Origin: Candidatus Bathyarchaeia archaeon | GTDB taxonomy: Archaea > Thermoproteota > CALKCG01 > B24 | Direction: 5' to 3' | Assembly: GCA_038870975.1 (NCBI GenBank) | Contig: JAVZJD010000001.1 | Span: 672,001 to 736,000, forward strand | DNA length: 64,000 nucleotides | The notes under the pieces: generated by a model | Database searches by the model: none | The model's input: the letters and a program-made list of their open reading frames with translations, nothing else | What the model was told of the DNA's origin: nothing | Shown here: piece after piece, positions 39,128 to 59,156 of the stretch | Position numbering within the stretch: position 1 is the stretch's first letter | Layout: every line of letters begins with the position of its first letter | Made by a program: the position numbers and the translations under genes

Positions 39128-39176
39128 TATGTGCTATATAGTAAGTGGAAGAATTGTTGGGTGGTGATTATAAGTT

Positions 39177-39730: not shown

Positions 39731-39733
39731 ACG

Positions 39734-40054
39734 ATGCAGAATGTATCTCAAATTCAATCGATCTACATGACTGCTGTAATTGTACTGATTGCCATAGGGT
39801 TGTACTGCATAATTTCTAAAAGAGAGCTTCTCAAAATAGTCATCGGGATAGAAATACTAACTTCTGCTGTAAACCTGAACATCATAATTATGGGTTTAGG
39901 TGACTCTGGGGTTGATGTTTTAGCGCAATCTATGGTGGTCATTTCAATGGGTATAGGTGCCTGTATAGCCGCCGTCGCATTAGTCCTTGTAGTTGATGTT
40001 TTCCGCCACTACCGTACGACGGATGTTAGAAAGCTTAGAAGATTGAGGTGGTAA
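39734..40054 (+). CDS. nuoK: NuoK/MnhC subunit
   Basis: IGLYCIISKRELLKIVIGIEIL..AVNL; C-terminal TTDVRKLRRLRW. Confidence 0.88.
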   Translation: MQNVSQIQSIYMTAVIVLIAIGLYCIISKRELLKIVIGIEILTSAVNLNIIIMGLGDSGVDVLAQSMVVISMGIGACIAAVALVLVVDVFRHYRTTDVRKLRRLRW

Positions 40055-41646: not shown

Positions 41647-41662
41647 TCGATGTTAACCAATA

Positions 41663-41756
41663 TATTGACTAAAGTAGTTAAAAGACCAGCTAACTCGTGG
41701 TGGTTTTGGTCGGAGTACACGACCAGCCATCAATTACTGGCTTGACTTTAACAATA
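41663..41756 (+). ncRNA. Long intergenic stem-loop (candidate sRNA or mRNA regulatory element)
   Basis: Nested stems TATTG/CAATA, TAAAGT/ACTTTA, CCAG/CTGG, TGGTGGT/GCCATCA, TGGTCG/CGACCA with G-U pairs on the + strand. Confidence 0.45.
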
Positions 41757-41817
41757 ATCTTAAATATCTTTCGTGGTAAATAAAGTGAATGTCAACTGGG
41801 CTCCAAGAGGTGGATAT

Positions 41818-43281
41818 ATGATAGTCTTACAATCGATTATAATACCCATGATCGCATCCATATTTACTTTAGTATTGGATGAACATTTTAAAGAGAAGGT
41901 AGGCTGGATAGCGTTCATAGCATCCCTTTCCTCAACCATATTGATATTAAATGTTGCTCTTGAGGGGGGATGCGTAGAGGTTTATCCATGGACGCCTACT
42001 ATTGGAGATTTTAAGCTTGTAGCCGACGGCATTAGCATACCTATAGCTATTACCATCTCCCTACTCTGTACGGTTATAGCTGTATATTCAATAAGCTATA
42101 TGAAGCATGAAGAAAAAATAGGGGCATACTTTACCCTGCTTCTTATCTACGAAGCCGGCATGATAGGTACAGTTTTCGTAGCAAATCTAGTCTTCTTCTT
42201 CTTATTCTATGAGCTTATGCTTCTCCCATCTTGGGCGTTGATTGCCATTTGGGGTACTGGAGCTAAGGAAAGAATAGCCCTTAAATACTTCATATTTACA
42301 GAAGCAGGGGCTCTATCCTTACTTGGAGGAATAGCCTCAACTAAAATCTTATCTGGGACTTTCGATATATTCGAAATAGCGAATGCTACTGCTACTCTCT
42401 CTCCGTATGTACTCGTTCCAATAGCTTCCGCTATGCTTCTCGGCTTTTTCGTCAAAATGGCTTTATTCCCATTACATACTTGGCTTCCAGACGCCCATGC
42501 TGAGGCCCCAACACCTATAAGTGCGCTCTTATCGCCAGCGATGATAGGATTGGGCGGCTATGCGTCTATAAGAGTGCTCTACACGTGTTTTCCGTCAATC
42601 TTAAACCTGTGGTGGTTCACAACGACTCTGACGGTTCTCGCTTTAATTACACTCATTTATGGAAGTTTAATGGTATACGTCCAAGATGATATTAAGAGGT
42701 TTCTAGCGTTCTCTAGCATAAGTCAGATGGGTTATATGTTTTTCGGGATATCAAGCCTTTCAACAACCGGGGTTTTAGGGGCAATCCTTATTTACATAAA
42801 TCACGGTTTATGTAAAGCCGTCCTCTTCATGGTTTCAGGTGTATTCAGCCATGAAGTTGGAACTAGACGTATAAGAGAACTCAGCGGTGTAGCTTCTAAA
42901 ATGCCCTATACTACGGTGGCTGCTGTAATCAGTTTTCTCGGGCTGGCTGGTGTTCCACCACTTGTAGGATTTTGGGCTGAACTTTACATATTCACTGGCT
43001 CCATCTACACGGCTTTAAAAGGCTCCCCTACCCTGGATATTACTAGGCTTGTACTGACGGTTGTTGCAATAATCTCAGCTATTCTGACAGCTGGTTATGG
43101 ACTATGGATTATACGTAGAGTTTTTGCTGGAAAACCAAGTAAAGCCGTTGAGAAATCGCATGAGCCATCTATGTTAATGTTAATGCCGCTGTTTATCTTA
43201 GCAATATTAGCCATAGTTTTAGGCGTATATCCATCACCCCTTATGGGCCTAATATCGTCTACTACTGGTGTTGGATTATGA
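41818..43281 (+). CDS. nuoM: Antiporter-like subunit NuoM
   Basis: FFLFYEL, WGTG..ERIALKYFIFT, VKMALFPLHTWLPDAHAEAP, GFWAE; ATG 41818 follows GGTGG SD. Confidence 0.88.
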   Translation: MIVLQSIIIPMIASIFTLVLDEHFKEKVGWIAFIASLSSTILILNVALEGGCVEVYPWTPTIGDFKLVADGISIPIAITISLLCTVIAVYSISYMKHEEKIGAYFTLLLIYEAGMIGTVFVANLVFFFLFYELMLLPSWALIAIWGTGAKERIALKYFIFTEAGALSLLGGIASTKILSGTFDIFEIANATATLSPYVLVPIASAMLLGFFVKMALFPLHTWLPDAHAEAPTPISALLSPAMIGLGGYASIRVLYTCFPSILNLWWFTTTLTVLALITLIYGSLMVYVQDDIKRFLAFSSISQMGYMFFGISSLSTTGVLGAILIYINHGLCKAVLFMVSGVFSHEVGTRRIRELSGVASKMPYTTVAAVISFLGLAGVPPLVGFWAELYIFTGSIYTALKGSPTLDITRLVLTVVAIISAILTAGYGLWIIRRVFAGKPSKAVEKSHEPSMLMLMPLFILAILAIVLGVYPSPLMGLISSTTGVGL

Positions 43282-43311
43282 ATTCTCCATGAATAATACT
43301 GGGGGTTACAT

Positions 43312-45195
43312 ATGTTACCCGTCGCAAATGCGAGCCGAATCATTGATATCCTCTTGGTTACGACAATCGCATCCTACATAGTTGGCCGCAAATTGAAGGA
43401 GTACACTGGTTTTATAACAGCTTCAGGGTTAATAATAACCACGTTAATCCTTCTCAAACTTATACCTGAAGTCTTAGAATCTGAGATTTACGAAGAATAT
43501 ACTTTTCTATCGGTTGTTCCTCTAGGATTTAGTTTTAGGATTGACGGGTTGAGTTTAACTTTAGCCTTAATCATAAGCTTTATTTCAACCCTCTCTTCCA
43601 TATACTCAATTCAATGGATAAAGGGCAAGGGTGCTCATGAAATTTACTTCAGCCTCATCTCTTTCTTATCACTTACGATGACGATAGTAGTCTTCACAAG
43701 CGATTTAATCATGCTATTCCTCTTCTGGGAGCTTACAGTTACCATTCCAGTCTTCTTAATAGCAAAATGGGGTTACGAAGGAAGCTTAACTACGGCCATT
43801 CGATTCTTCCTATTCTCTAGACTTGGCGGGGTGCTTCTTTTAGTCGGGCTAATCCTGGCCTACATATCCTTAGGATCATCGAATATGCACGTTCTAGCAG
43901 GTATTAGCCATGATTTGAAACCAGGAATCGCCACTCTAATAATTCTCCTAATGATTTTGGGATTCTCCGTTAAAATGGCGATTTGGCCATTCCATGGTTG
44001 GCTTCCGTCAACATACGTAGATGCACCAATACCTGTAACCGTATTGCTAAGCGGGGTTATGAGCAAACTAGGAGTCTATGGTGTGATTAGAGTCCTGCAA
44101 ATCTTCCACGGATTTGAATCTTTAGAAATTCAAAGTATTCTAACATCCTTAGCTTTAATCACCGCTTTATATGGTGGAATTATGGCTTTAAAAAGAGACG
44201 AACTAAGAGAAATCTTGGCATTTTCAAGTATGAGTCACATGGGCTATATACTCTTCGGTTTCTCTGCGCTTTCAACTCATGGACATGGCTTTTCAGGGGC
44301 TCTATTGCACATGGTAAACCATACGATAAGTAAAAGCATCCTATTCTTCTGTGCAGGATTCATGCTTCAAATCTTTGGGACAGCCAACGTTAAAGAGTTG
44401 AGAGGTAACTTTAGGCATCATCATCTAATACTCATATCCGCTATAATAGGTGCATTGGGGCTCATGGGTCTTCCACCAGCTATTGGATTCTGGAGCAAAG
44501 ACATGCTCCTAGGCTTCTCACTAGAACTCGGATATCCTGTTACAATTCTTATGTTTATTGTAGCTTTTCTATCAGTAGCTTACAACTTAAGATGGATTTT
44601 TTACGTTTTTACTGGGGTGAAATCTGACGGTGAAATCGGAAGACCTCCTCTCACTATGACCGTACCAGTGATACTACTCGCCGCTCTAGCAGTTACACCA
44701 TTAACTTACATGGATGTATTAACGCACCTTTTAAAAGTAGAGCATGTTACAATAGAATCCATCCCCCTCTTGATGACCATTATGGCTTCAGTCTGCGGCT
44801 TTCTATCCGTCTATCTAACAGCTTACAAGCATAGGCTTCAATTAGGCTGGCTTACTGGGATTTCAACTACGCTGTTAGATACGTTATCTCTCGAATGGCT
44901 CTACCTCGGTATTTTTGTGAATGGGTTGTTAAAGGCTGCGCATTGGATTTTCAATAACATCGAAACGTCTATTGATGCTCTCAACTATCTGACCGCGAAT
45001 AACCTACTTAAGTCTGCAAACTGGATTTTCAATAACATCGAAACGTCTATTGATGCTCTCAACTATCTACTTGCGAGAAGTGCGTTTCATCTTTCCCAGC
45101 AAGTGAGAAAGCTTCAGACTGGAATGCTATCCTACAATGTTCTAGCCATACTTTTAGCTATGATAATTCTATTGCTTCTTATACTACTAGTATAA
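43312..45195 (+). CDS. nuoL: Antiporter-like subunit NuoL/MrpA-like with lateral helix
   Basis: LFLFWEL, PFHGWLP, GFWSKD; C-terminal amphipathic helix and RKLQTG..Y terminal TM. Confidence 0.82.
   Translation: MLPVANASRIIDILLVTTIASYIVGRKLKEYTGFITASGLIITTLILLKLIPEVLESEIYEEYTFLSVVPLGFSFRIDGLSLTLALIISFISTLSSIYSIQWIKGKGAHEIYFSLISFLSLTMTIVVFTSDLIMLFLFWELTVTIPVFLIAKWGYEGSLTTAIRFFLFSRLGGVLLLVGLILAYISLGSSNMHVLAGISHDLKPGIATLIILLMILGFSVKMAIWPFHGWLPSTYVDAPIPVTVLLSGVMSKLGVYGVIRVLQIFHGFESLEIQSILTSLALITALYGGIMALKRDELREILAFSSMSHMGYILFGFSALSTHGHGFSGALLHMVNHTISKSILFFCAGFMLQIFGTANVKELRGNFRHHHLILISAIIGALGLMGLPPAIGFWSKDMLLGFSLELGYPVTILMFIVAFLSVAYNLRWIFYVFTGVKSDGEIGRPPLTMTVPVILLAALAVTPLTYMDVLTHLLKVEHVTIESIPLLMTIMASVCGFLSVYLTAYKHRLQLGWLTGISTTLLDTLSLEWLYLGIFVNGLLKAAHWIFNNIETSIDALNYLTANNLLKSANWIFNNIETSIDALNYLLARSAFHLSQQVRKLQTGMLSYNVLAILLAMIILLLLILLV
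44944..45068 (+). repeat. In-frame 78-bp-period tandem duplication (47 bp identical) in nuoL
   Basis: TGGATTTTCAATAACATCGAAACGTCTATTGATGCTCTCAACTATCT at 44944-44990 and 45022-45068. Confidence 0.95.
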
Positions 45196-46233
45196 TATGA
45201 GGGCCTTTCTTATATCTTCTTCAGGTATCTCTCTAATTTTTCCGTTTATGATTGTTATTAAATCATTGACTTCATAGAATTTGAGATTTAAGAAACCGAT
45301 TAAAATTCCTACATGGAATCTATCTCCTTGAAAAACTTTAGCACTTTCTTTTGCTATATGTCGTTTAAGTGATACTTCTACCTCAAATAATGTTTTCTCC
45401 CTACTTAGCAAAATGACTTTTCCATAATAGCTTTCCATTAAAATATCCACGGCTTTAGAAATAGACGGTGCAACATACATTTTAATAAGTGTATCATTCG
45501 TTATCTTGTAATATGCAGGAATTATAAGTTCTCCTATATTTCTAATATCTACTCCAATGTTTTTAATTCTTAAAACAGTCATAATATTCATAGCATCTGT
45601 TTCCACTCCTATTAGATGTTCTGCTATTTTTCTATCATATCCTTTTAACTTCTCTATCTCATTCCATATACGGCTCATAACATATCTATCCATGCTCATC
45701 TCTAATGGTATGGTTGAACCGATTTTTTTGGAAAAAGTCGTGTAAAAGTATGGGAATATGGATTCTTTTAATCTATCATCTAAGAAATCTACTATTTTTG
45801 ATAGATCTCTCGTGTCTAAAATTATTTTACAAACGTCTGCATTATATCTGCCAACTGGAACAATTATTTTAAATGCCTCTTCAGGACCCACATTTTGCGC
45901 TAAAAGTCTAATAAGTGTTTTTAAACAAGTCACCTCATGCCTCTCAAGTATTGCATTTAAAAGAGGCTTAACATAAGAAGGTGTTGCTGTTAAAATTTTG
46001 CGAAATGTGTCATAGTAGTGAATAAGAAGAGCTCTCTCTATATTCTCAATATTAAGCGTTTTATCAAGCACCTCAGATACCGCCTGTTTGTAAACAGTCT
46101 CCTCAAGCATCGTTAAGACTTTATGAGGGTCTCTTATTCTCAGTATTGTCTCATATTGAGACGGTGTTAAAATGAACGATTTTAGAGCGCCCGTAAGTGC
46201 CACGGCTGAAGCATAACGGCCAGTCTCTCTCAT
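45187..46233 (-). CDS. atpC: A/V-type ATP synthase subunit C (d)
   Basis: YASA...ALKS..LT..QYE.I, L.ETVY, E.D..NI..VLR, LNLKFYEV.DL..I..GK. Confidence 0.85.
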   Translation of the reverse strand: MRETGRYASAVALTGALKSFILTPSQYETILRIRDPHKVLTMLEETVYKQAVSEVLDKTLNIENIERALLIHYYDTFRKILTATPSYVKPLLNAILERHEVTCLKTLIRLLAQNVGPEEAFKIIVPVGRYNADVCKIILDTRDLSKIVDFLDDRLKESIFPYFYTTFSKKIGSTIPLEMSMDRYVMSRIWNEIEKLKGYDRKIAEHLIGVETDAMNIMTVLRIKNIGVDIRNIGELIIPAYYKITNDTLIKMYVAPSISKAVDILMESYYGKVILLSREKTLFEVEVSLKRHIAKESAKVFQGDRFHVGILIGFLNLKFYEVNDLITIINGKIREIPEEDIRKALILY

Positions 46234-46413
46234 ACCGATAAAAACTTAATATATTCTACCTTATCTATTTTGCTACTTTTTAGTAATTCTGGTAAGAGAA
46301 TAGATTACGAGATAATTCTTCAAGGATATTTTTGAAGAAGGCTCAGTTGCTCGACATGTAAGTAGGTTTCATCAAGGGGGATTCAAGTTGATAAGATGAG
46401 TTGACCATTTAAC

Positions 46414-46644
46414 TTATTTTTTCGTTGGCTTTGTTAGAATAATATTTTTAGTCATCCAGAGTATAATTAAGCTGCCTAGGATAAAACCCAGTGTTCCTCC
46501 GATAAATGGTAGCAGTCTTCGAAGCGGCTCATCGAATTCATTTCTTATCATCCAACCTATATAAAAGCCTATCAACGCCGGTATAGGAATAAAAAGTATT
46601 ACTGAAATGTAAACACGGTAGAGTTTTTCGCGAATAAACTTCAC
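46414..46644 (-). CDS. Small 2-TM protein, AtpZ/AtpI (ATPase gene1)-like
   Basis: PALIGFYIGW.I...F....LPFIGGTLGFILG; overlaps the subunit I stop. Confidence 0.55.
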   Translation of the reverse strand: MKFIREKLYRVYISVILFIPIPALIGFYIGWMIRNEFDEPLRRLLPFIGGTLGFILGSLIILWMTKNIILTKPTKK

Positions 46645-48182
46645 CCTCTAGAAATTCCTAGTGAAAAGGGTTTATACTCTACATCCGTACCTGTATAGAA
46701 CTTTGAAAACCACTCTACCCAGTGTAGCCTTAATGTATGGAGAAATGCAAGAAATTGCTCAAGACCAAGTATGAGGAATAACGTCCCAAGTACGAATGCT
46801 ATAAAACCAACTGGACTAGCTGGTAGGATGAGTTTGCTAAGAAGTCCATGAGCCATATTTAAGGCAACAATCCGCAAATAGGACACCGTATGGGATATTG
46901 ACGATAGGAATTGCTCCATGGATTCTGCTACACCCTCCGTACCATGAAGCACGATGTTGGAAACAGCCATGGCTCCAAGCGGTAAGAAGACAAAGGGGAT
47001 GATGATTTCAAGATTTAGAATCATTTTGAAAACCCCCCAACCATATGTAAATACTAGGTAACTACCGCTCCAGTACAACCAGATCCATAACAGGGGGCTT
47101 AAAGCCTCCTTGTACTCTCTGTTTAAGAGTTTATTAACGAGGTTTATAATCAATCCTAAGCTTATATGAAACGTCCCGATTAAAATAGCGTATTTAATCA
47201 TCATCATTGGGTGTTCTAAAGGTGAAAACCACAGTGGTTCGTGTAGTCCGGTGAGGGTAGCAAACCATTCATGGGACCCAAAAAGTTCCCCATATAAGAA
47301 ACCAAAGATTATCGATGTAATTGCACATGCGATTAATAGAGGAGCTCCTTTTAAAACATATCCTACAATTCCACCAGGTTCTTTAGGCATTCGGCGTCTT
47401 ATCCAGCTGAAGAGGATACCGAATAGAAGTATAAGGAGACCGTGGCCGACATCTCCAAACATCATACCAAAGATTAGGGGGAAGGTAAATGCAAAAATTA
47501 TCGTAGGGTCGATTTCCCTGCCATTTAACGGTTTATAAGCACTTATCAGCTTGTGAAAAGCCTCTAAAGCTTTTGGGTAAGTCGCAACAGCTGGTATACT
47601 TTCTCCAGTTTCGGGGAGGATTTTAATGTATCCCATGTGTCTCTCAATACAGGCAGAAACTTCTTTTACCTTTTCCTCTGGTACATATCCTTCAAACACA
47701 TATACGGTTTTTATTTTAGCCATAGATCCCTTCGCTTCCTCCATGGTTTTAACCGTGGTCAATGTGTTAAACATGGAAGATAGAATTTTCTCCTTTTCTT
47801 CGGCTATCTTGGCAAACTCTCTTTCATAGTCTTTACGTTCTAACTCTGTTCTCTCACCTCGAATATGCATTATGTAACTTTCTATTCTCTCCACTTCCTT
47901 CTCTACCTCATTTAAATACGCATTTAAATCTCCAGTGGGAATACTAACATCTTCATCTTTTACCTTTATTTTCAGAAATGTTATGATGGAGTTTAGTCGT
48001 GAAATTAAATTGTTTATTCTAAATAATGTATCTTTTGTTTCAACGTATTGTACGTCCTTAAGTGTTTTACGGGCGTCTGAAAAATGAAAGCATTTAAGCC
48101 TCCCCAATTCATAAAGAAGTTCATTCAGTTTATCGCCATAAACGTATACTCTTACAGCAACCATCTTCGTCGGTAGGAGCAT
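46641..48182 (-). CDS. atpI: A/V-type ATP synthase subunit I (a), short form
   Basis: EIDPT...FPLIFGMMFGDVGHG, YGELFG, SHTVSYLRIVAL (essential Arg), LRLHWVEWFSKFY. Confidence 0.93.
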   Translation of the reverse strand: MLLPTKMVAVRVYVYGDKLNELLYELGRLKCFHFSDARKTLKDVQYVETKDTLFRINNLISRLNSIITFLKIKVKDEDVSIPTGDLNAYLNEVEKEVERIESYIMHIRGERTELERKDYEREFAKIAEEKEKILSSMFNTLTTVKTMEEAKGSMAKIKTVYVFEGYVPEEKVKEVSACIERHMGYIKILPETGESIPAVATYPKALEAFHKLISAYKPLNGREIDPTIIFAFTFPLIFGMMFGDVGHGLLILLFGILFSWIRRRMPKEPGGIVGYVLKGAPLLIACAITSIIFGFLYGELFGSHEWFATLTGLHEPLWFSPLEHPMMMIKYAILIGTFHISLGLIINLVNKLLNREYKEALSPLLWIWLYWSGSYLVFTYGWGVFKMILNLEIIIPFVFLPLGAMAVSNIVLHGTEGVAESMEQFLSSISHTVSYLRIVALNMAHGLLSKLILPASPVGFIAFVLGTLFLILGLEQFLAFLHTLRLHWVEWFSKFYTGTDVEYKPFSLGISRG

Positions 48183-48183
48183 A

Positions 48184-48852
48184 CTATCCACCTTTGGGGG
48201 AAGGCCTTTCTCTATCTTGGAAGAGAATACGCGATACCTCTCTTATAAGGTCTTTCTTCATCCTTTTAATTCTCCCCTCAAAGGTATTGTCAAAAATAAC
48301 TGATTCATCTTTATTCGTAACCAAGGCTCCTCCTATAAAACTCATAGGTTTTAGAATAGTCTCAAACTTCGTCTTAACTCCAGTCTTCTCCTCTACCACT
48401 TTCGCTAGATTTTCAAAGTCAAGTTGACATGGCTTTGACAAAATCACCTTTAATTCCCCCCCTCCAATGGCTACGGCCGCCTCTAAAATCAATTTTTCCA
48501 AGATTTTCTCATACTCTGCTGAAGGTACCACCTTTTCCTTCAAAAACTCCATTACATTTTCAAAAACAGCTTCAATCAGTTTATTCTTCTCTTGAAGAAT
48601 CCTTAACCTATACGTAAGACGAGCTTTAGTTTCAGCTATACGTTTCATCATAATACTTTTGCTTTCAGCTTCTTGAACAATTCTTTCAGCTTCCTTTAAT
48701 GCTTTTATACGGGCCTCTTCTTTTGCAGCTTCAATTATTTTCATAGCCTCTTCTTCCGCTTTTTTAAGGATTTCCTGCGCCTCTTCCTCTCTCCGCATCC
48801 GTATTCTTTTTATGAAGTCTTCAAGTATAGTATCTTCATGTATAGTCTCCAT
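48184..48852 (-). CDS. atpE: A/V-type ATP synthase subunit E
   Basis: N-terminal coiled coil; IGGALV...FDNTFEGRI...SRILF. Confidence 0.9.
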   Translation of the reverse strand: METIHEDTILEDFIKRIRMRREEEAQEILKKAEEEAMKIIEAAKEEARIKALKEAERIVQEAESKSIMMKRIAETKARLTYRLRILQEKNKLIEAVFENVMEFLKEKVVPSAEYEKILEKLILEAAVAIGGGELKVILSKPCQLDFENLAKVVEEKTGVKTKFETILKPMSFIGGALVTNKDESVIFDNTFEGRIKRMKKDLIREVSRILFQDRERPSPKGG

Positions 48853-48856
48853 AAAA

Positions 48857-49174
48857 CTATTCAACCTCCAAAACTCTCTTAACTATAAAGCTTACTGCTT
48901 CCTGGGTTTTCGCTCTAGCGGTCTTCCTCAGCTTCTCAGCTTCCTCTTCAACAGTCCCCCTCATAATTCTTTCAGCCTCTTTCTCAGCCATTGCCAATAT
49001 TTCCCTTGCTTTCCTTTCAGCCTCCTCTAGGATACTTTTTCGAAGAGCATCAGCCTCCTTATCAGCTCTTAGAGAAGCTTCAGCAATCACAAGCTGAGCT
49101 TTCTTCTTTGCATCCTCAACAATTCTTTCCGCCTCCTCTTCAGCCTTCCGTATAATGTCAAATTCCTCATCCAC
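48857..49174 (-). CDS. atpH: A/V-type ATP synthase subunit H/G (peripheral stalk)
   Basis: IRKAEEEAERIVEDAKKKA A/E/K-rich coiled coil ending AVSFIVKRVL; upstream of atpE. Confidence 0.8.
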   Translation of the reverse strand: MDEEFDIIRKAEEEAERIVEDAKKKAQLVIAEASLRADKEADALRKSILEEAERKAREILAMAEKEAERIMRGTVEEEAEKLRKTARAKTQEAVSFIVKRVLEVE

Positions 49175-49428
49175 TTATGGTCAACCGATTTATTTTTCTT
49201 AAAAATCTTTTAAAGTTTTTGTTCGGTCTTTCGACTTTTAAAGTCATTCCGCAGTAACGTCTCTCTATTGGATTCTGTGAGTTTAAAGTTGCATTGTGTA
49301 GAAGTTATTTTAGTAGCCGTCCTTACGTTTTCGCCATCTTTTCATGTACAGATTTGAACATTTGTTGCATCAGCGTGAAGTTAAGCCTATATACGACTAG
49401 TCACTCATATTTACGCTGACGTGATGGT

Positions 49429-51204
49429 ATGCCAGTAAGAGGCACGATATCTAGAATAGTCGGGCCTTTCGTTATGGCTAAAAATACTACAGGATTACAT
49501 ATGTACGAGCTTGTAAGAGTTGGAGAGGAAGGGGTCATAGGTGAAGTCATAGGACTCAGTGGAAACAATGCGTTTATACAGGTTTATGAAGAGACTATTG
49601 GCTTAAGACCGGGGGAGCCAGTCGAGGGAACGGGGAAACCGCTCTCCGTAGAACTAGGCCCAGGTTTAATTGGACATATATTCGATGGTATTCAAAGGCC
49701 TCTACACGTCATCCAAGACATGGTAGGCTTCTTCATAAGAAGGGGATTAACTCCTAATGCACTTGATAGAAGCAGAAAGTGGTTTTTCCAACCCGTTGCC
49801 AAGGTTGGGTCCAAGATTCCAGAGAGTATACTCGGGTTAATAGATGAAACCCCTGCTTGTAAACATAAGGTCCTCGCACCACCGAGTATTGAAGGCACTA
49901 TAGAATATATAGCTTCTGAAGGCGAGTATACAGTTGAAGATACTATAGCTGAGGTCAGAGCCGGGGGAGAGAAAATAGGTTTAAAGCTTATGCATACATG
50001 GCCAGTGAGAAAACCTAGACCATATAAGTCCAAACTTCCTCCCAACATACCTTTAACAACTGGGCAAAGAGTTATAGACGCTTTCTTCCCTATGGCTAAA
50101 GGTGGAACCGCTGCAGTTCCAGGAGGTTTCGGAACTGGGAAAACCGTGTTACAACACACTCTAGCTAAGTATGCCGATGCCGACATAGCTATATTCGTCG
50201 GCTGTGGTGAAAGAGGAAATGAAATGGCTGGGCTTATCGATGAAATATCTAAATTGAAGATTCCTGGGACGGACTACCCACTATTGGACAGAACGATACT
50301 GATAGTTAACACATCTAACATGCCTATTGCCGCTAGAGAAGCAAGTATTTACACTGGAATAACGATAGCTGAGTATTATAGAGATATGGGGTATGATGTA
50401 ATACTGATGGCCGACTCCACCTCCAGATGGGCTGAAGCTTTAAGAGAAATATGCGGTAGGCTTGAAGAGATGCCCGGTGAAGAAGGGTATCCTGCCTACT
50501 TAACTACGAGGCTTGCCGAGTTCTACTCTAGAGCTGGTAGAGTAGTGACTTTAACCGAAGAAGAAGGGTCTGTAGCAGTAGTTGGAGCGGTGTCACCTCC
50601 AGGAGCGGATTTCTCAGAGCCTGTAACTCAGAGCACACTTAGACTTACTAAGGTTTTTTGGGCTTTAGATTTTAACTTGGCGCATAGAAGACATTTCCCT
50701 GCTATAAATTGGTTAACAAGCTATTCTATGTATTTTGATTCGATGAGAGACTGGTATGAGAAAAATGTAGCTCAAGACTGGTCTCTTATCCGTACCGAGG
50801 CTATGAACCTCTTAAGGGAAGAGGAAGAGCTTAGAGAACTTGTCGCCTTACTAGGTCCGGAAGTTTTAACGGAAACTCAGCGTTTAACGCTTGAGATTGC
50901 TAGAATAATTAAGGAAAGCTTCCTTAGACAGAGTGCCTTTCACCCGATAGATGTATACTGCCCATTAGATAAAACATATCAAATGCTTAACTTAATATTT
51001 AAGTTGAGAGATAAAATGAGAGATGCAATTAATAAGGGTATTCCCTTGGCAGAACTGCTATCGTTACCCGTTGTGGAGATTATTTCAAGGATGAAAATAG
51101 TCGACTATGAAGAGTTTAGGAAAACAATTCCAACTATAAACCGAAGTATAGATGAACAAATAGATAAGCTTATTGAAAAATCCGCAAAAGGCGGGGGTTC
51201 TTAA
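49429..51204 (+). CDS. atpA: A/V-type ATP synthase catalytic subunit A
   Basis: GGFGTGKT, GCGERGNEM, MADSTSRWAEALRE, EEGYPAYL, VSPPGADFSEPVT; no intein. Confidence 0.97.
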   Translation: MPVRGTISRIVGPFVMAKNTTGLHMYELVRVGEEGVIGEVIGLSGNNAFIQVYEETIGLRPGEPVEGTGKPLSVELGPGLIGHIFDGIQRPLHVIQDMVGFFIRRGLTPNALDRSRKWFFQPVAKVGSKIPESILGLIDETPACKHKVLAPPSIEGTIEYIASEGEYTVEDTIAEVRAGGEKIGLKLMHTWPVRKPRPYKSKLPPNIPLTTGQRVIDAFFPMAKGGTAAVPGGFGTGKTVLQHTLAKYADADIAIFVGCGERGNEMAGLIDEISKLKIPGTDYPLLDRTILIVNTSNMPIAAREASIYTGITIAEYYRDMGYDVILMADSTSRWAEALREICGRLEEMPGEEGYPAYLTTRLAEFYSRAGRVVTLTEEEGSVAVVGAVSPPGADFSEPVTQSTLRLTKVFWALDFNLAHRRHFPAINWLTSYSMYFDSMRDWYEKNVAQDWSLIRTEAMNLLREEEELRELVALLGPEVLTETQRLTLEIARIIKESFLRQSAFHPIDVYCPLDKTYQMLNLIFKLRDKMRDAINKGIPLAELLSLPVVEIISRMKIVDYEEFRKTIPTINRSIDEQIDKLIEKSAKGGGS

Positions 51205-52605
51205 TTGGCTTTCAAATTTGTCCATAGTGGGTTAATTCTTTCAACAGTTAAGGAAATTAAAGGTCCACTTCTATTCGTCGAAGCCAAGAACGTGAGTTAC
51301 GGTGAGCTTGTAGAAATTACAACTCATACTGGTGAAGAGAGGCTTGGTCAAGTAATCGAAGTAGCAGAAAATATAGCTATTATTCAAGTCTTCGAAGGAA
51401 CATCCGACCTAGAAATTCGGAAGACAAAAACTAGATTCACAGGTGAACCGATTAAACTTGGTGTTTCAATGGACTTATTGGGTAGGATTTTCAACGGTAG
51501 AGGTGAAGCCATAGACGGTGGACCCAATCCTATACCTGAGTATGAATTAGATGTTCATGGTATACCAATAAATCCATTTTCAAGAGCCCATCCATCTGAA
51601 TTCATTCAGACAGGAATATCTGTTATAGATGGTATGAACACGCTCGTCAGAGGCCAGAAGCTTCCAATATTTTCGGGTGCTGGCCTTCCTCACATGCTCT
51701 TGGTTTCTCAGATAGTAAGACAAGCCAAGGTTCGGGGTGAAGAAGAAGAGTTTATAGTGGTCTTTGGAGCCATGGGTGTGACGGCTGATGAAGCTAGATG
51801 GTTTAGGGAAGATTTTGAAAATATGGGTGTTATGGATCGAACCATAATGTTCATAAACCTAGCTGAAGACCCAGCTATTGAAAGGCTCTTAACGCCTAGG
51901 CTTGCTCTTACAGCAGCTGAGTATTTTGCTTTCGAACATGATATGCATGTGCTGGTTGTGCTTAGCGATATGACATACTACGCTGAGGCGTTGAGAGAAG
52001 TTTCAGCAGCTAGGGAAGAAGTTCCAGGTAGAAGAGGGTATCCCGGATACATGTATACGGATCTGGCATCCATATATGAAAGAGCTGGTAGAATCCGAGG
52101 TCGTAAGGGCTCTGTAACTCAGATACCCGTTTTAACGATGCCGGAAGACGATATAACACATCCAGTACCAGACTTAACAGGTTATATTACTGAAGGGCAG
52201 TTAATCATGGATAGAGACATGTACCGGCGTGGAATATATCCACCAGTAAATCCTCTTCCATCCCTCTCGAGACTTATGGACGCGGGCATAGGTTCAGGTA
52301 AGACTAGAAAAGACCACAAGCAGCTCTCAGATCAACTTTACTACTGTTACGCCGAAGGTAGAGCTATGAGAGAGGCCGCCATGATTTCAGGTGAAGCTGG
52401 TTTATCTGAAAGAGATAAACTATACTACACTTTCGCAGAGGAGTTTGAAAGGAAGTTTATAAACCAAGGTGTTTACGAAGACAGAGACATTGAGAAGACG
52501 TTGGATATTGGTTGGGAGCTTCTTTCAATATTTCCTGAATCGGAGCTCGTTAGAATAGACCCGTCCATTATAAAGGAGTATCATCCAAAGTACAGGAGGA
52601 GTTAA
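51205..52605 (+). CDS. atpB: A/V-type ATP synthase subunit B
   Basis: [49 protein letters not shown]. Confidence 0.97.
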
Positions 52606-52606
52606 A

Positions 52607-53278
52607 ACGTCTGTTGAACTAGCATCTGTTCCAATAACTAGGGAAGGGCTTTTAACGCTTCATAGGAGAAAGAGTTTAGCATTAGCTGTATTGGATTTAT
52701 TGAATAGAGATTTAGAAGTTTTGGTGAAGGAGTTCTTTCGTTTAATCAAAGAAGTGGAAGCTGCCAGATGGAGGTTGTACGAAAACCTACGTGAAACCTA
52801 TAGGCGTTATGCTGAGGCTGAAATGGTTTTAGGTGCTAGAAGAGTAAGGCTATTGGCCTTAACAAATGTAGAAGAAGATGTGTTAAAAATTAAGGTGAGG
52901 GAAAAAAGGATGGTTGGAGTTCGTCTTCTCAATGTTTTAATACCGTCTGTAGAGTCTGTAGAGAAACCAACAGCTCTACTAAATTACAATCTATTAGATA
53001 CGTCTGCTGTGGTGGAGGATATGGTAAATCAAGTAAGAGAATCTCTTAGAATCATTGTCAGAGTTATTGAAGCCGAAGCGACTCTTGATGCAATAGCACA
53101 AGCCATGGGGATTACTAAGAGGAGAATTAACATCATACAGTATAGGATCATACCCAGTATAGATAGAATGATACGGTATATAGAATCTATTTTAGAAGAG
53201 AGGGCTAGGGAAGACGCTATAAGAATAAGGATTTTACAGAGAAAAAGGAAAGTTCGCTCGGCTGTTACAGCATCGTAA
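52607..53278 (+). CDS. atpD: A/V-type ATP synthase subunit D
   Basis: TKRRINII...IP, LEERARED..R; the conserved N-terminus (P.TREGLL.L.RR..LA...DLL) lies upstream of TTG 52691, starting at SD-preceded ACG 52607. Confidence 0.9.
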   Translation, partial: TSVELASVPITREGLLTLHRRKSLALAVLDLLNRDLEVLVKEFFRLIKEVEAARWRLYENLRETYRRYAEAEMVLGARRVRLLALTNVEEDVLKIKVREKRMVGVRLLNVLIPSVESVEKPTALLNYNLLDTSAVVEDMVNQVRESLRIIVRVIEAEATLDAIAQAMGITKRRINIIQYRIIPSIDRMIRYIESILEERAREDAIRIRILQRKRKVRSAVTAS

Positions 53279-53606
53279 GCATCATGAGGGCTATTATTAA
53301 GGCGTATATGGCAATAGCTTCTATGAATACGATGTAGATAAGTGTAGAAGAGGCTATTTCTGGTTTTTCTGCCACGGCACCTATGGCTGCTGATGCTGCA
53401 CGTGAGAGGGCCATTGCGACAAGACTAAGCACTACGGCGACCATTATACTTATGACAAGAAAAGCCACATTTCTTTCGCTAAATACCTTGTCAAGTACAT
53501 CGCCAATTGTAGAGTCATTTGTCTCAGCTCCCATAGTTGCAACTGGTAGAATCACCATTATGAGTACTGCAATTGCTAAAACCGTTTTCTTAGCCAGGGA
53601 TGTCAT
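53265..53606 (-). CDS. atpK: A/V-type ATP synthase proteolipid subunit K (c) with signal-like N-terminus
   Basis: AAIGAVAEKPE loop and FIEAIAIYALII with conserved Glu. Confidence 0.9.
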   Translation of the reverse strand: MTSLAKKTVLAIAVLIMVILPVATMGAETNDSTIGDVLDKVFSERNVAFLVISIMVAVVLSLVAMALSRAASAAIGAVAEKPEIASSTLIYIVFIEAIAIYALIIALMMLTML

Positions 53607-53855
53607 AGTGAATAATTTTTCAAGTCGTTGCTTATATAAATTTCTTTCTCCACGTCCTTTTAATTACGGGTTCTACTGTTATGATGACTACTTCTAACAG
53701 CACTCGAGGCTCATGGATTTATTATTTGGTTAGAAATTTTATTGAATTGTAAAGTGCCTTGTTGACGGGTGCTCTTCTAAAACTCTATCTAGATTTTTAT
53801 GATGTTTTTAACGACGGAAACTTTATAATCTAGCTTAATATCTCTATCAGCCTAG

Positions 53856-54182
53856 TTGAGCAGTATAGCTGTTATTGCAGATAAGGATACTGCCTCTCTC
53901 TTTAAACTTGCAGGGTTGAAGTTCAGCTTAACCGCTAACTCTCCTGATGAAGCCGAAAAAGCTTTAAAAATGCTTATGGAAAAAGGTTTTAAAGCAGTAG
54001 TTATTACAAAGAATTTAGCTCAACAAATGCAACAAACGATATTCAGCCTTAAGAGAGGACGGAAATACCCGATTATAATAACCATACCTGGTGTAGGTGA
54101 GCCGATAGAGAAAGAAGTGGTTACAATACATGAATATTTGAAGAGGTCTCTAGGTATCGAATTAAAAACAGAAGAGCGTTAA
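53856..54182 (+). CDS. atpF: A/V-type ATP synthase subunit F
   Basis: IAVIADKDT..LFKLAG, PIIITIP, LKRSLGIEL. Confidence 0.9.
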   Translation: MSSIAVIADKDTASLFKLAGLKFSLTANSPDEAEKALKMLMEKGFKAVVITKNLAQQMQQTIFSLKRGRKYPIIITIPGVGEPIEKEVVTIHEYLKRSLGIELKTEER

Positions 54183-54513
54183 GATATTGAGTTGAGTAAG
54201 CATACGTGATTTCCTCCATTAACCTTCCCTCTCACCATTTCATGGAGAGATTTCGAAGCGTGGCCATGCCTTTTACATATAGAGGTTTTAACGTATATAA
54301 CGCAGTAACCATTATCGTAAAATCACGCTTTCACGCGCTATCAGCCTGTCTTCGTATCTTCGTAGGATGGTGCACTTCTTAAGTATATAAATCTTTGAAA
54401 ATTTCAACGTTTTCTTTTGCCATTGAGCATTGTGTCCTCCCCTTCAATAGATTCGATGAAGCATAAATGCAACATATAAATAGGCTCTGTTAATTATCTA
54501 TTGATGATCCCTA

Positions 54514-55530
54514 TTGAAAGCCGCTTTTATAGATAAGCCACGTAGTTTAAATATTGTAGATAGGGATATTCCGTCGGTCAAGCCTAGAGAAGCCATCGTA
54601 AAGGTTCATGCATGTGGTGTCTGCGGTACGGATATTCACATTTATGAAGGTGTTATGCCTTGGGCTAGGCTTCCATTAATTCCAGGTCATGAGTTTTCCG
54701 GTGTTGTCGTAGATGTTGGTGAAAACGTAGATATTATATCCATCGGCGACGTTGTTGCAGTAGATCCAAATATTACGTGTGGTTTATGTCGCTATTGTAG
54801 GAGTGGTAGACGAAACCTATGTTCTAAGGTTGAGTCTATAGGAGTTACTAGAGACGGCGGCTTTGCCGAGTATGTAGTAGCTCCAGTATCGCAATTGTAC
54901 AAAATTCCGAGTGGATTAAGTCTAGATGAAGCTGCTTTTACAGAACCTGTGGCCTGTTGCTTACATGGTATTTCGAGACTATCAATTAAACCAGGTGAAG
55001 ACGTTTTAATAGTTGGAGCAGGCCCAATAGGTCTCATACATCTTCAATTGGCTAAGAGAGCTGGAGCTAGGAGCGTAATAGTTGTTGAAGTTAACGATAT
55101 GAGGCTTAAACTTGCGGGAAAACTTGGAGCTGATTTAACGGTAAATCCGTCTAAAGAGGACGTTGTAAAAGCCGTCAACGGCTTTCTTAGGGGTAAAGCT
55201 GTTGAAGCAGCTATAGATGCTGCTGGTGGCTCTACGCCACTTACATTAGCTTTGAAATGTTTAGAACCTGGTGGGCGTTTACTGGTCTTCGGCGTAGCTT
55301 CTGAAGACGACATATGGCCTATCAAGCCATATGAAATCTATAAGTTTGAGCTTACAATCGTAGGGAGCTTCATCAACCCATATGAAATGGAAGCTGCGTT
55401 AAACCTATTGGCATCAGGCGCTGTGAACGTTAAACCCTTGATAAGCCACATAATAAGCCTGAGAGACCTTGAGAAGGCCCTTAAACGCGAAATACCGAAT
55501 ACAATAAAGGTTTTGGTTAAGCCTCAGTAG
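54514..55530 (+). CDS. Zn-dependent alcohol/polyol dehydrogenase (MDR family)
   Basis: CGVCGTD, GHEFSG, CGLCRYC...C, GAGPIG. Confidence 0.92.
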   Translation: MKAAFIDKPRSLNIVDRDIPSVKPREAIVKVHACGVCGTDIHIYEGVMPWARLPLIPGHEFSGVVVDVGENVDIISIGDVVAVDPNITCGLCRYCRSGRRNLCSKVESIGVTRDGGFAEYVVAPVSQLYKIPSGLSLDEAAFTEPVACCLHGISRLSIKPGEDVLIVGAGPIGLIHLQLAKRAGARSVIVVEVNDMRLKLAGKLGADLTVNPSKEDVVKAVNGFLRGKAVEAAIDAAGGSTPLTLALKCLEPGGRLLVFGVASEDDIWPIKPYEIYKFELTIVGSFINPYEMEAALNLLASGAVNVKPLISHIISLRDLEKALKREIPNTIKVLVKPQ

Positions 55531-55542
55531 TCCTGCCTCATA

Positions 55543-56007
55543 TCATAACTCTCTATTGCTCTCTTCTTCGACCTTTATTTTCCTCACAACTTTTATGTCT
55601 ACTATCCTTGTGGAAGGATATTGTCCATGTTCATCTTTCTCAAACTGTTTACACATGTCGAAAACAGTGAGTAGTGCTGTTGTAACACCTACGAGTGCCT
55701 CAAGTTCAACCCCAGTTTTAGCTATAGCTTTAACGGTTACTGACGCTTCAACTCCTCCCTCAACTATGTTTAGTTTAACGTCTATCGACGTTATTGGAGC
55801 TATTTGGTGAGCTAACAATATTAAATCTGGCGTCTTCTTAACAGCGTTGATGGCTGCGAGTTGAGCAACTGTTATCACATCTCCCTTCGGTATCTTCCCA
55901 TCTTTAATAGCTGCTATGGTTTCGGGTCTAAGCATGATCAGCCCCCGTGCCTCAGCCTCTCTATAGACCTCTTTTTTACCAGTTATATCCACCATTTCAA
56001 CGCCCAT
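55543..56007 (-). CDS. moaC: Cyclic pyranopterin monophosphate synthase
   Basis: MVDITGK...REA, KGDV..VA.LA.I.AVKKT.DLI.LAH, KTGVELEAL, DMCK. Confidence 0.93.
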   Translation of the reverse strand: MGVEMVDITGKKEVYREAEARGLIMLRPETIAAIKDGKIPKGDVITVAQLAAINAVKKTPDLILLAHQIAPITSIDVKLNIVEGGVEASVTVKAIAKTGVELEALVGVTTALLTVFDMCKQFEKDEHGQYPSTRIVDIKVVRKIKVEEESNREL

Positions 56008-56048
56008 GCTATTAACTCTAAACTTAAAACCGTCTAATTTATATTTAC

Positions 56049-57179
56049 TTGCCTAGAAAGCTATTCATGACCTTTATGAGAGATTTTTCCGAAAAACTTT
56101 CTAAGTTTAAAGGCTTTATAACAGGTCCTCAGGTCGACGAGTTTTTCAGAGAATTCGACATTAAATTCGGCGCTGGTGTTTGGGCTGCAGGAGATTTCTC
56201 AGATAGATTCAATAGAACCGGCTATTTTCCAGAAATTCCATCCGATTTGAAATCCAAGCTCAAACGTATCCGTGAAGCTGGTATAGAAGGCGTAGCATTA
56301 ATAAATTCCCAATTCGTAAAACCCGATTATTCAATCGACTGGGATCTCGTGAATGAGACCGAGGAATATCTAAGCGAATTCGAGTTGAAGCCTGCTGGTT
56401 TAGCGTTAGATTTATCTGGCTTTCCAAAGTGGAAACTTGGGACCTTAACAAACCCAGATGCACGGCTTAGGGAGGATGCGTTGAATATAATCCTTGAAAG
56501 CTTGGAAATAGCGAAACAGTTGAAAACAGATGTCGCTTCTCTATGGCCTGGTCAGGATGGTTGGGATTACAGTCTAGAAGTTAATTATGGTAAAAGGCTT
56601 GATTGGCTTTATGAAGGATGCTTGACAGTAGCTGAACAAGCTAAACGGCTTGGTTTGACTTTTTCAATAGAGGCTAAGGTTAAAGAGCCTAAAGAGGGAA
56701 ATATGATAATTCCTACTTCTCAATTTGCACTCCTCTTAGCAAAGAGTATAAACGAAAAACTTTGTTGCAAAGCGATGGGTATAACTATAGATTATGGTCA
56801 CGAATTGATGTACGCCGTAGAACCAGCCTTTACAGTTTATGCGGCAAAGAAGTTTGAAGTACCACTGGCAGCTTTCCATATAAACACCGCTAAAACACAC
56901 AGTAATGATGAAGACCGCGTCGTAGGCACGGGAGACTTTTGGACGTTTATAGACTTCCTCTACGCCTCTATAGATATTGGATATAAAGGCTGGATGGTGC
57001 TTGACCAATTCTCGTACAGAATGGATCCTGTTGAAGCTCTAAGGCTTTCCAAGGAGTTCTTCGCGAACTTCTATAAGAAAGCTTTAACCATTTACAATTT
57101 AAAAGATGAATTTGAGAAAGTCCGAGATACTGGCGATCAGGCTAAGATACTGCATTATGTTAAAGGCCTCTTAAATTAA
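56049..57179 (+). CDS. Xylose isomerase-like / L-rhamnose isomerase-like sugar isomerase
   Basis: GAGVW...FSDRF, GTLTNPD..LR, WPGQDGWDY, IEAKVKEP, IDYGH, HIN; start may be ATG 56085. Confidence 0.82.
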   Translation: MPRKLFMTFMRDFSEKLSKFKGFITGPQVDEFFREFDIKFGAGVWAAGDFSDRFNRTGYFPEIPSDLKSKLKRIREAGIEGVALINSQFVKPDYSIDWDLVNETEEYLSEFELKPAGLALDLSGFPKWKLGTLTNPDARLREDALNIILESLEIAKQLKTDVASLWPGQDGWDYSLEVNYGKRLDWLYEGCLTVAEQAKRLGLTFSIEAKVKEPKEGNMIIPTSQFALLLAKSINEKLCCKAMGITIDYGHELMYAVEPAFTVYAAKKFEVPLAAFHINTAKTHSNDEDRVVGTGDFWTFIDFLYASIDIGYKGWMVLDQFSYRMDPVEALRLSKEFFANFYKKALTIYNLKDEFEKVRDTGDQAKILHYVKGLLN

Positions 57180-57369
57180 CGATCCCCTTTCTTTTTTGGT
57201 GATGCATAAAGCTATGTTATACAAAGGGTTTAATTATAATTTCATAGGTTTAGGTCTCCAAAATCCAACATCAAGTTTAGAGAAATACAACTTTATCGTT
57301 TTCATACGCAAAGACTACTGTTATAAAGATCTTTAATGACATCTATTCTAGGTTAGAGCTGATAGAATA

Positions 57370-58215
57370 TTGGTGAGGTCGATTCCAGATATGAAGGAAA
57401 CAATAATAGCTGCTTCAACCCATAACATTAAAAAGCCCTATGCTAATTGGCTTCGAGACATACATTCTCTAGGGTTTCGTTACATTGACGTTGAATTTTT
57501 CAAAATCGTTGATGAGCCATATACTATTGGAGACAGCATAAGTAGGCTAAAATCGATAGAAAGCGATGCGGTACAAGAACTTAAAAACTGGGTTGAAAGT
57601 AGCATGTTGAGAGTTGTTTCATTCGAAGCAGGGGCGCTTTTTGTAGACGATGATAAAAGGCTTAGAAAATCCATTGCCAGAATTCGTGAAGTCATTTCTG
57701 CAGCATTGTCCTTTAAATGCTCGATGGTTACTGTTACCCCTTCATCGTTTAAAGAGGTTGTCTCAAGAGAAGATATCGTCAAGGGTTGTAGAGTTTTAAT
57801 AGATGAATGTGAAAGTTACAACGTTAAACTCGTACTCGAAAACGGTGAAGTAGGCTCGATTAAAATCCTCAGGAAGCCCGAAGACATTAGCTACGTAATC
57901 GAGAGAGTGGATTCGCCGATTCTGGGTGTTTGTGTAGACGTTGCAGCAGCCGCTACCATAGACTTCAACATCGTTTCTTACGTGTCGCGTTTTATAGATC
58001 ATATTGACATAATCCATATAAACGATGTGACAAGAGACCTTAAGTTTAAAAACCTCATAGTAGGGCTAGGCGATCTAAAGTTTGATCCCTTCGTAAGGCT
58101 CGTTAAAAAATACGGCATCCCAATGGTTATAGAAATATACTCTGGTTATGGGCCTGTAGACTTATACCTATGTAAAAGACAGATAGAGAAAATCATCCGA
58201 CAGGTAGACTACTAA
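57370..58215 (+). CDS. Sugar phosphate isomerase/epimerase (AP-endonuclease-2 TIM barrel)
   Basis: VKLVLEN, GVCVDV, IHIND, GLGDLKF, MVIEI; start may be ATG 57391. Confidence 0.78.
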   Translation: MVRSIPDMKETIIAASTHNIKKPYANWLRDIHSLGFRYIDVEFFKIVDEPYTIGDSISRLKSIESDAVQELKNWVESSMLRVVSFEAGALFVDDDKRLRKSIARIREVISAALSFKCSMVTVTPSSFKEVVSREDIVKGCRVLIDECESYNVKLVLENGEVGSIKILRKPEDISYVIERVDSPILGVCVDVAAAATIDFNIVSYVSRFIDHIDIIHINDVTRDLKFKNLIVGLGDLKFDPFVRLVKKYGIPMVIEIYSGYGPVDLYLCKRQIEKIIRQVDY

Positions 58216-58328
58216 GTTAAAATGGACAAAAACCGTTTAGATAATCCCCGTTATTTCTTAAAGAATTAAGTTAGGTTGATGGTATAGGAGACGTAAAAAT
58301 TCTACCTAGCAAACGGACTTTTAATAAG

Positions 58329-58403
58329 TGCGGCTGGCGGGATTTGAACCCGCGATCTGGGGCTTGGGGGGCCCCAATCCTAACCAGACTAGACCACAGC
58401 CGC
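58329..58403 (-). tRNA. tRNA-Gly(CCC), intronless, CCA not encoded
   Basis: GCGGCTG acceptor stem pairing CAGCCGC+A, D arm, GGGGC/GCCCC anticodon stem with loop CCCCCAA, GGTTCAAATCC T arm. Confidence 0.93.
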
Positions 58404-58448
58404 ACAGCCTCTAAAAACTCAAAAATTACTAGAGGGGTTTATTAATTT

Positions 58449-59156
58449 TTAAGAGTTATGGTTCATCAGGTTTCCCGCGTTAGAATCTAGCTTCGTTTGC
58501 CTTCCTTCTTCAATACTTCGCATATAATTGCTATTTATAAGTCGGTATATGGCTTCAGCTTTTGTCTGATTTAATCCTTTAATCTTCATCAGCTCTGCTA
58601 CTGATGCGTTAAAAACTCTCCTGAGGTTTCCAAACTTCTCCAATGCTCTCTCAGCTAATATCGGTCCCATGCCAGGTAGTGATGTTAAAACTTTAATCCT
58701 TTCATCTATTCTTCCGCCAGCCTTTGGAACTGTTATTGGCTGTTTTGACTCTCCTCTTCTAAGCAGTCTCAATGCCACAATGTATATGTGCTCAGCACTC
58801 TGCGTTTTATCATATGCGTATAGAATTGGCACTTCAAAGCCTAGGGATATTGCTGACATGGCTCCTAATACGGCTTTAGTCTTCGTCGTAAACTCGCTTA
58901 TTTTAGCCACGTCCCCCTCTAGCAGTAGAACTGGTTTTTCATAGTGTTCCTTGAGTAATTTAACCTGTTTGAAAAGCCGCCCGTCGAATATAGATGCTAT
59001 AAAGTCTGGCAGAGTCTTACGTTCAAAGGCTACTCTACTCGAAAGTACGTAGTCTCCGACTTCCAAAAGCTCATATACTATTCTAACACCTTTATCCTTT
59101 AATATCGATGGAACTCCTGAATCCCTCTCCCTCTCGTCGACAATTATCCTCATCAT
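58449..59156 (-). CDS. xpf: Short Xpf/ERCC4 structure-specific nuclease with HhH2
   Basis: IIVDERE, LEVGDY, ERKT..DF..SI.DGRLF.Q, LPGMGP HhH. Confidence 0.93.
   Translation of the reverse strand: MMRIIVDERERDSGVPSILKDKGVRIVYELLEVGDYVLSSRVAFERKTLPDFIASIFDGRLFKQVKLLKEHYEKPVLLLEGDVAKISEFTTKTKAVLGAMSAISLGFEVPILYAYDKTQSAEHIYIVALRLLRRGESKQPITVPKAGGRIDERIKVLTSLPGMGPILAERALEKFGNLRRVFNASVAELMKIKGLNQTKAEAIYRLINSNYMRSIEEGRQTKLDSNAGNLMNHNS

Follow-up and report, generated by a model that had tools for sequence, protein, structure and literature searches.

The stretch of DNA analysed here (the window) comprises 64,000 nucleotides (nt), positions 672001-736000 of contig C1 of G000, a 1.85-Mb archaeal genome of two contigs and 41% GC; the sequencing runs in which the stretch occurs are hot-spring metagenomes from several studies. 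The closest public relative, G004, is a hot-spring metagenome-assembled genome (MAG; JAWCKO01, Candidatus Bathyarchaeia archaeon) of a sister species. G003 is a congener; the genus has six genomes and its family, f1, has eight, while f2, f3 and f4 stand for further families. Our subject is atpD, the gene for subunit D of the A-type ATPase, which directly follows atpA and atpB, the operon context of this subunit, and carries an ACG codon at its homologous start position. The features of the locus are as follows.

51205-52605, plus strand: atpB, A-type ATPase subunit B (open reading frame (ORF) list; Pfam ATP-synt_ab and flanking domains; 87% amino acid identity to the G003 orthologue)
52594-52599, plus strand: Shine-Dalgarno (SD) sequence AGGAGG, inside the end of atpB and 7 nt before the ACG
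52607-52609, plus strand: ACG, homologous start position of atpD (alignment with relatives; independent assemblies)
52607-53278, plus strand: atpD, A/V-type ATPase subunit D, 223 codons and a stop (Pfam PF01813)
52691-52693, plus strand: TTG, first canonical in-frame codon of atpD, not the real start (inside the Pfam domain; TTA in G004)

The junction of the two genes reads ...ACAGGAGGAGTTAAAACGTCTGTT... (in a wider context, ...AAGTACAGGAGGAGTTAAAACGTCTGTTGAA...), so that the atpB stop codon TAA (52603-52605) is followed by a single A (52606) and then by the ACG. The frame is open from the ACG to 53278, and the first canonical start (ATG, GTG and TTG were counted as such) is the TTG at 52691, 28 codons on. 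Upstream of the ACG, an in-frame TAA is met after 11 codons, with no canonical start between. A sequence-only reading of the window had drawn attention to this SD-preceded ACG, 1 nt after the atpB stop and with no canonical start for 28 codons, and the sequence, the ORF list and Pfam all agree with that description. When translated from the ACG, the product matches PF01813 (ATP-synt_D) with E=4.3e-34, residues 15-211 corresponding to profile positions 2-195 of 196, which means that a start at TTG 52691 would cut the Pfam domain.

It is nonetheless this TTG that gene callers choose: public gene calls begin atpD at 52691 and give a 195-amino-acid product without the 28 N-terminal residues and the helix that they contain. 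Since the ATA at codon 10 is also a near-cognate codon, one could suppose that AtpD starts downstream at either codon and is N-terminally shortened, or that the gene is decaying. We consider this very improbable. The TTG is not only located inside the domain but is also replaced by TTA in G004, while the ATA corresponds, in relatives with canonical starts upstream of it, to the conserved Ile of PITR, and has no SD sequence. Furthermore, the 27 codons preceding the TTG differ between G000 and G003 by 6, 5 and 18 changes at the first, second and third codon positions, and this prevalence of third-position changes indicates that they evolve as coding sequence.

Alignment with relatives places the ACG at the start of the gene. 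In G009 and G012, an ATG aligns with it (MSVERLAV... vs. TSVELASV...), and in G001-G003 and G015 a TTG start stands one codon before the ACG column. In G004, where AtpD is 91% identical to that of G000 and the locus shows 83% nucleotide identity, the ACG is the same. In a genome known from a two-contig assembly, one might suspect that the C is a private mutation or an error of sequencing or assembly, but the DNA evidence leaves practically nothing of this explanation. Of 15 public contigs that encode the identical product downstream, two were retrieved (Logan, SRR5468568 and SRR27170999), and both read AAAACGTCT, i.e., they have C at 52608, as does G004; contigs of the DNA runs X2 and X7 bridge the site, and none of the differences listed for them falls at 52608. 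The presence of the same ACG in the sister MAG and in two independent short-read assemblies excludes an assembly error and refutes this alternative; the C on which the sequence-only reading was built is genuine. Judged from these alignments, the ACG is the homologous start position of atpD, kept across species and not an error. Its distribution indicates that it is a recent start, found only in the species of G000 and its sister species.

Several other features of the locus deserve mention. A segment of 128 nt that straddles the junction of atpB and atpD (52512-52639) has 100% identity to G004, with flanks at 87-96%; folding of 52512-52660 gave z=-0.87, which does not support an RNA structure, and the identity may be due to chance. 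AtpD is only 53-55% identical to that of the congeners G001-G003, compared with 85-87% for AtpB and a genome median of 82% (G000 vs. G003). In G015, a member of another family, AtpB (85%) and AtpD (56%) are as close to those of G000 as in the congeners, the rest of its family having about 30% for AtpD, a pattern that hints that the operon was transferred. The idea of a +1 frameshift at AGT-TAA-A that would fuse AtpB to AtpD was rejected, as the site offers no slippery re-pairing and in relatives the two are separate genes with their own starts.

The SD sequence in front of the ACG is a strong one. The 16S rRNA ends in ...GGATCACCTCCT at its 3′ terminus, and across the genome SD 5-mers show a spacing peak at 7-10 nt before starts, a range that includes the 7-nt spacer of atpD. 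The AGGAGG has a duplex energy of -10.0 kcal/mol, and about 13% of first-canonical start candidates reach this value. For 11 of the 12 sites with non-canonical starts considered in this work, the duplex energy was -9 kcal/mol or lower, as against 19% of first-canonical start candidates, a comparison that is only partly independent because several of the 12 came from an SD screen. In a crude energy-based enrichment test that used the genome alone, CTG was the codon most enriched behind strong SD sequences (p=0.007).

The genome-wide inspection of homologous starts proposed along with the sequence-only reading proved fruitful, as ACG recurs in eL21, an ABC ATPase and a DUF6785 protein. These sites and a further candidate, mgtE, are listed below.

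18073-20082, minus strand: DUF6785/DUF6784 membrane protein, ACG start at 20082-20080 (Pfam; alignment)
contig C1 of G000, 257346, beyond the window: ACG of eL21, in the Met column of MPxSKGxR, preceded by GGGGGG with a 7-nt spacer
contig C2 of G000, 85979, minus strand, beyond the window: ACG of the ABC ATPase gene, with an SD sequence in each genome
31212-32441, plus strand: ORF of an MgtE-domain transporter (Pfam MgtE from ORF residue 71), candidate starts ACG 31275-31277 and CTG 31263-31265

The ACG of eL21 is shared by ten genomes of two families (five of the genus, the sister genus and family f2), with ATG in f3 and f4. The codon after it shows synonymous variation, and the 30-40 nt before it differ except for the G-rich SD sequence. 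The ACG of the ABC ATPase is present in all six genomes of the genus (six to seven genomes overall), each time behind an SD sequence; in G006, it directly follows an in-frame TAG. The membrane protein had been taken for an OPT transporter, an assignment that has to give way to DUF6785/DUF6784, but the proposed ACG holds: it occupies the ATG column of the orthologues in G001, G004, G006 and G007 and of a G000 paralogue, and is again ACG in G003. The upstream sequence is GGTGGGAAA-ACG, with GGTGGG just before the start. As a side observation, the DUF6785/DUF6784 family, to which 18073-20190 and its paralogues belong, is much expanded: the search yielded 24 matches for G000 and as many as 41 for G002, vs. 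0-7 for the other families searched. ACG makes up only 80 of the 7145 codons (about 1%) upstream of first canonical starts, and its occurrence in the homologous Met column of four genes (atpD, eL21, ABC ATPase and DUF6785), together with its conservation across species, is far beyond chance.

The case of mgtE is different. The ACG that the sequence-only reading had offered as a possible start does exist, but it is AGA in G003 and has no aligned start in the sister genus, which makes it unconvincing. Four codons upstream lies a column that behaves more consistently: it reads CTG in four of the six genus genomes and TTG (G005) or TCG in the others, the preceding codon being GTG in G001 and G004. 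The SD sequence (TTAGAGGCG), together with a ATGGGGAG situated 9-10 nt after it, is kept in 8/8 family genomes. In addition, the genus has an out-of-frame mini-ORF, ATG GGG AGT TAA (31237-31248), ahead of mgtE; a -1 slip on GGGG or one extra G in the RNA could join it to the mgtE frame, so that a regulatory upstream ORF (uORF) or a programmed frameshift could be envisaged.

ACG is not the only unusual start codon of these genomes. We screened G000 against half of the G003 genome for genes with conserved coding sequence upstream of the first canonical start, and about 11 of the 697 reciprocal best pairs (median amino acid identity 82%) showed it. In the aIF1A gene (C1:164435), CTG stands at the Met of MGKRK in families f1, f2 and f3, with ATG, GTG or TTG elsewhere; CTG is also conserved at the starts of a GPN GTPase gene, an IDH/IPMDH gene and gene a657. 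The aroA gene has CTG in G000 vs. ATG in G003, and for a hydrogenase-like gene the situation is reversed. The MBF1 gene (C1:348094) has ATC in all eight f1 genomes and TTG or ATG elsewhere, and the uL11 gene (C2:532210) has TTA in the genus, where the sister genus has TTG and f2 and f3 have ATG. The possibility that G000 is special within its genus was discarded: the first canonical start lies further downstream than in the other genome for 88 genes in G000 and for 92 in G003, and from this symmetry we conclude that the trait belongs to the lineage, which comprises at least two to three families in one order of hot-spring Bathyarchaeia.

How might such codons serve as starts? The sequence-only reading left the choice between initiation at ACG and C-to-U editing, and it is the former that fits the data. 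In plant organelles, C-to-U editing creates AUG starts from ACG, and in Methanopyrus kandleri a fusion of CDA and THUMP domains, CDAT8, edits C8 of tRNA to U8. An analogous activity acting on mRNA would turn ACG into AUG and CUG into UUG before translation; the two commonest non-canonical starts would both become canonical in this way, and relatives do have T at the same positions; as in plant organelles, the genome shows ACG where Met is conserved. Yet ATC (MBF1) and TTA (uL11) at conserved starts are beyond repair by C-to-U conversion, and in contrast to plant organelles no conserved cis-element was seen, as the eL21 upstream regions of the ten genomes share only the SD sequence. Nor does the enzyme repertoire favour editing. 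The single CDA-fold gene of G000 scores best as a ComEB/dCMP deaminase, and a CDAT8-type fusion was not found in this genome, where THUMP domains reside on separately encoded proteins (PPR/DYW models were not searched); CDAT8, though an archaeal precedent for C-to-U editing, acts on position 8 of tRNA. Failure to recognise an editing enzyme does not prove that none exists. The unrepairable codons, the missing cis-element, the ComEB/dCMP-like deaminase and the separate THUMP proteins together disfavour editing, which we regard as improbable.

Another observation that had been counted in favour of editing, C33 in place of U33 in a tRNA-Gly, now finds a different explanation.

58328-58403, minus strand: tRNA-Gly(CCC), C33 at 58369 (ARAGORN)

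The C is indeed there, but not as a sporadic C-for-T change. It is also found in tRNA-Gly(UCC) (C1:295190), tRNA-Gly(GCC) having U33, and C33 is kept in more than 20 related genomes of several families. The anticodon loop of the two C33 tRNAs is CC-NCC-AA, and the CC[CCC]AA of tRNA-Gly(CCC) is conserved in relatives. C33 has been noted as a lineage trait of tRNA-Cys in Sulfolobales (PMC7668247). Being conserved and encoded in the gene, C33 of tRNA-Gly is a genomic trait and provides no evidence for editing, and it raises the question of its effect on decoding or on frameshifting at G runs.

A further alternative dispenses with the codon altogether: terminating or SD-anchored ribosomes would restart at any codon that is suitably spaced, perhaps by means of an elongator tRNA, and AtpD would then have Thr as its first residue. 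Several starts do lie 0-3 nt after an upstream stop (TAA-A-ACG in atpD, TAA-C-CTG in the IDH gene, TAA-CT-TTA in the uL11 gene), a strong SD sequence is present at all these sites, and UUA is hardly read by initiator Met-tRNA (Met-tRNAi). On the other hand, a mechanism indifferent to the codon does not account for the fact that the codons are mostly one-mismatch relatives of AUG (CTG, ACG, ATC) conserved over long distances, and the upstream in-frame stop is not conserved in the aIF1A, MBF1 and eL21 genes, so that in many genomes a terminating ORF is not needed. Codon-independent initiation is thus unlikely.

Taken together, the data lead us to propose, as the likely explanation of the atpD ACG, that SD-guided initiation at near-cognate codons by Met-tRNAi is a trait of this lineage. 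At atpD, the AGGAGG inside the atpB end would place the ribosome 7 nt before the ACG at 52607, which Met-tRNAi would accept as a near-cognate codon. Translational coupling, suggested by an atpB stop that lies only one base before the ACG, probably helps initiation. A weak start would suit a subunit needed only once per A3B3 head (a 1:3 ratio of D to A/B), and we infer that initiation takes place at the ACG by Met-tRNAi, the weakness of the start tuning the stoichiometry. In the lineage as a whole, ACG, CUG, AUC and apparently UUA would be tolerated and conserved as starts behind strong SD sequences.

The initiation apparatus offers no ready explanation for such relaxed stringency. Loss of aIF1 as its cause was rejected, since 40 of 41 genomes have aIF1 (SUI1), and its gene begins with an ordinary ATG preceded by an SD sequence. 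An altered initiator tRNA, or one with a CGU anticodon, was rejected as well: the initiator tRNA has the canonical form, with an anticodon arm no different from that found in relatives using ATG at the genes in question, and tRNA-Thr(CGU) is an ordinary elongator. The inspection of the initiator tRNA, aIF1 and deaminases called for by the sequence-only reading thus revealed two ordinary components and one ComEB/dCMP-like gene.

Several points have to be set against near-cognate initiation. With a normal aIF1 and an unchanged anticodon arm of the initiator tRNA, no molecular cause of relaxed stringency was found in these two components. The enrichment of ACG behind SD sequences was not significant when judged from the genome alone, either by the energy test (p=0.15) or by a simple SD 5-mer test (4/80 vs. 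a background of 2.5%). Along 39001-59000, the contigs of the two metatranscriptome runs, X15 and X18, leave the interval 52341-53007 at zero depth; elsewhere they carry a mixture of A>G, G>A, C>T and T>C transitions that look like strain differences. UUA pairs poorly with the CAU anticodon, and uL11, at least, may need another mechanism. Finally, archaeal reviews list only AUG, GUG and UUG as starts, and aIF1 rejects AUU in Sulfolobus (PMC4705826, PMC7531240).

The proposed initiation mode may be compared with known systems. Near-cognate initiation is an established phenomenon in eukaryotes and occurs at trace level in bacteria. In eukaryotes, CUG and ACG are read by Met-tRNAi with eIF2 under the control of eIF1 and eIF1A, and the codon preference (CUG, ACG, then AUC-type) is the same as in the lineage studied here. 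There are two differences: here, SD pairing rather than scanning and a Kozak context would pick the codon, and the near-cognate codon is the sole start of essential genes rather than the source of an extra isoform or a uORF. Homology links aIF2, aIF1 and aIF1A of archaea to their eukaryotic counterparts (PMC4705826). In Haloferax volcanii, about 30% of the putative alternative initiation sites detected by ribosome profiling (Ribo-seq) are near-cognate, although these were minor and were set aside by the authors as possible false positives (PMC7261190). The Haloferax data hint that archaeal ribosomes are able to start at near-cognate codons, but those described here are sole, conserved starts of core genes. 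Our literature searches brought up no report on ACG, CUG or AUC as conserved starts, whether in archaea at large or in Bathyarchaeia, and the present data point to a loosening of the start-codon rule that has so far gone undescribed in archaea.

The nature of the genes concerned is suggestive of regulation. The bacterial infC gene, encoding IF3, is autoregulated through its AUU start codon. In the lineage studied here, an initiation-machinery gene, that of aIF1A with its CUG in three families, likewise has a non-canonical start, which invites the idea of a stringency feedback loop. The analogy is incomplete: aIF1A is a homologue of IF1/eIF1A rather than of IF3, atpD is not a machinery gene, and the proposed feedback is purely inferential; to our knowledge, aIF1A is not a proven fidelity factor in archaea. 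With this in mind, we tentatively suggest, as a possibility somewhat short of even, that an order-level clade has widened its starts (ACG, CUG, AUC, perhaps UUA) behind strong SD sequences, with a preference for expression-machinery genes (aIF1A, eL21, uL11, MBF1, perhaps RpoK), where they would form a stringency feedback circuit like that of IF3 and AUU in bacteria or of eIF1 and eIF5 in eukaryotes; atpD would then be a recent recruit tuned to the 1:3 ratio.

In the course of this work, a few other genes with unusual N-terminal regions came to light. Two conserved genes, a MEMO-like one (G000 C2:365360) and that at C1:530548, contain GAGGTGATG, with the ATG shifted by one base relative to the frame of the long ORF, and there is no canonical in-frame start for about 60 codons. 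The MEMO-like gene has the same arrangement in G003, while the second gene has an out-of-frame GTG there, so that assembly indels are not the explanation; both are candidates for +1 frameshifting (at TTT-C or A5) or for a start at an unusual codon (TTA). The cbf5 gene (G000 C2:281655) carries, after GHGGTL-D, a short insert resembling the known mRNA intron of crenarchaeal cbf5, and the N-terminus of a translational GTPase (C1:642273) is cut off next to a palindrome, GGCTTAAGG...CCTTAAGCC, which may mark another mRNA intron. Both features are the same in G003.

The finding has consequences for the way in which these organisms are annotated and studied. Both the teaching of archaeal translation and the annotation of archaeal genomes recognise no starts other than AUG, GUG and UUG. 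As essential genes of this lineage keep ACG, CTG, ATC or TTA at their starts, standard gene callers truncate them; the same truncation as that of AtpD is expected for eL21, aIF1A, MBF1 and uL11 in MAG annotations of the clade, and some such genes of Bathyarchaeia may be missed entirely. The list of sites makes the choice between editing and initiation directly testable, the N-terminal peptides predicted for a start at ACG being MSVELASVPITR, (M)SVELASVPITR and TSVELASVPITR for AtpD and (M)PYSKGFR for eL21. The lineage would provide a natural system in which to study how an eIF2/eIF1-type apparatus and SD pairing together set the stringency of start-codon selection, and it raises the question of whether aIF1A, with its CUG, autoregulates through its own weak start.

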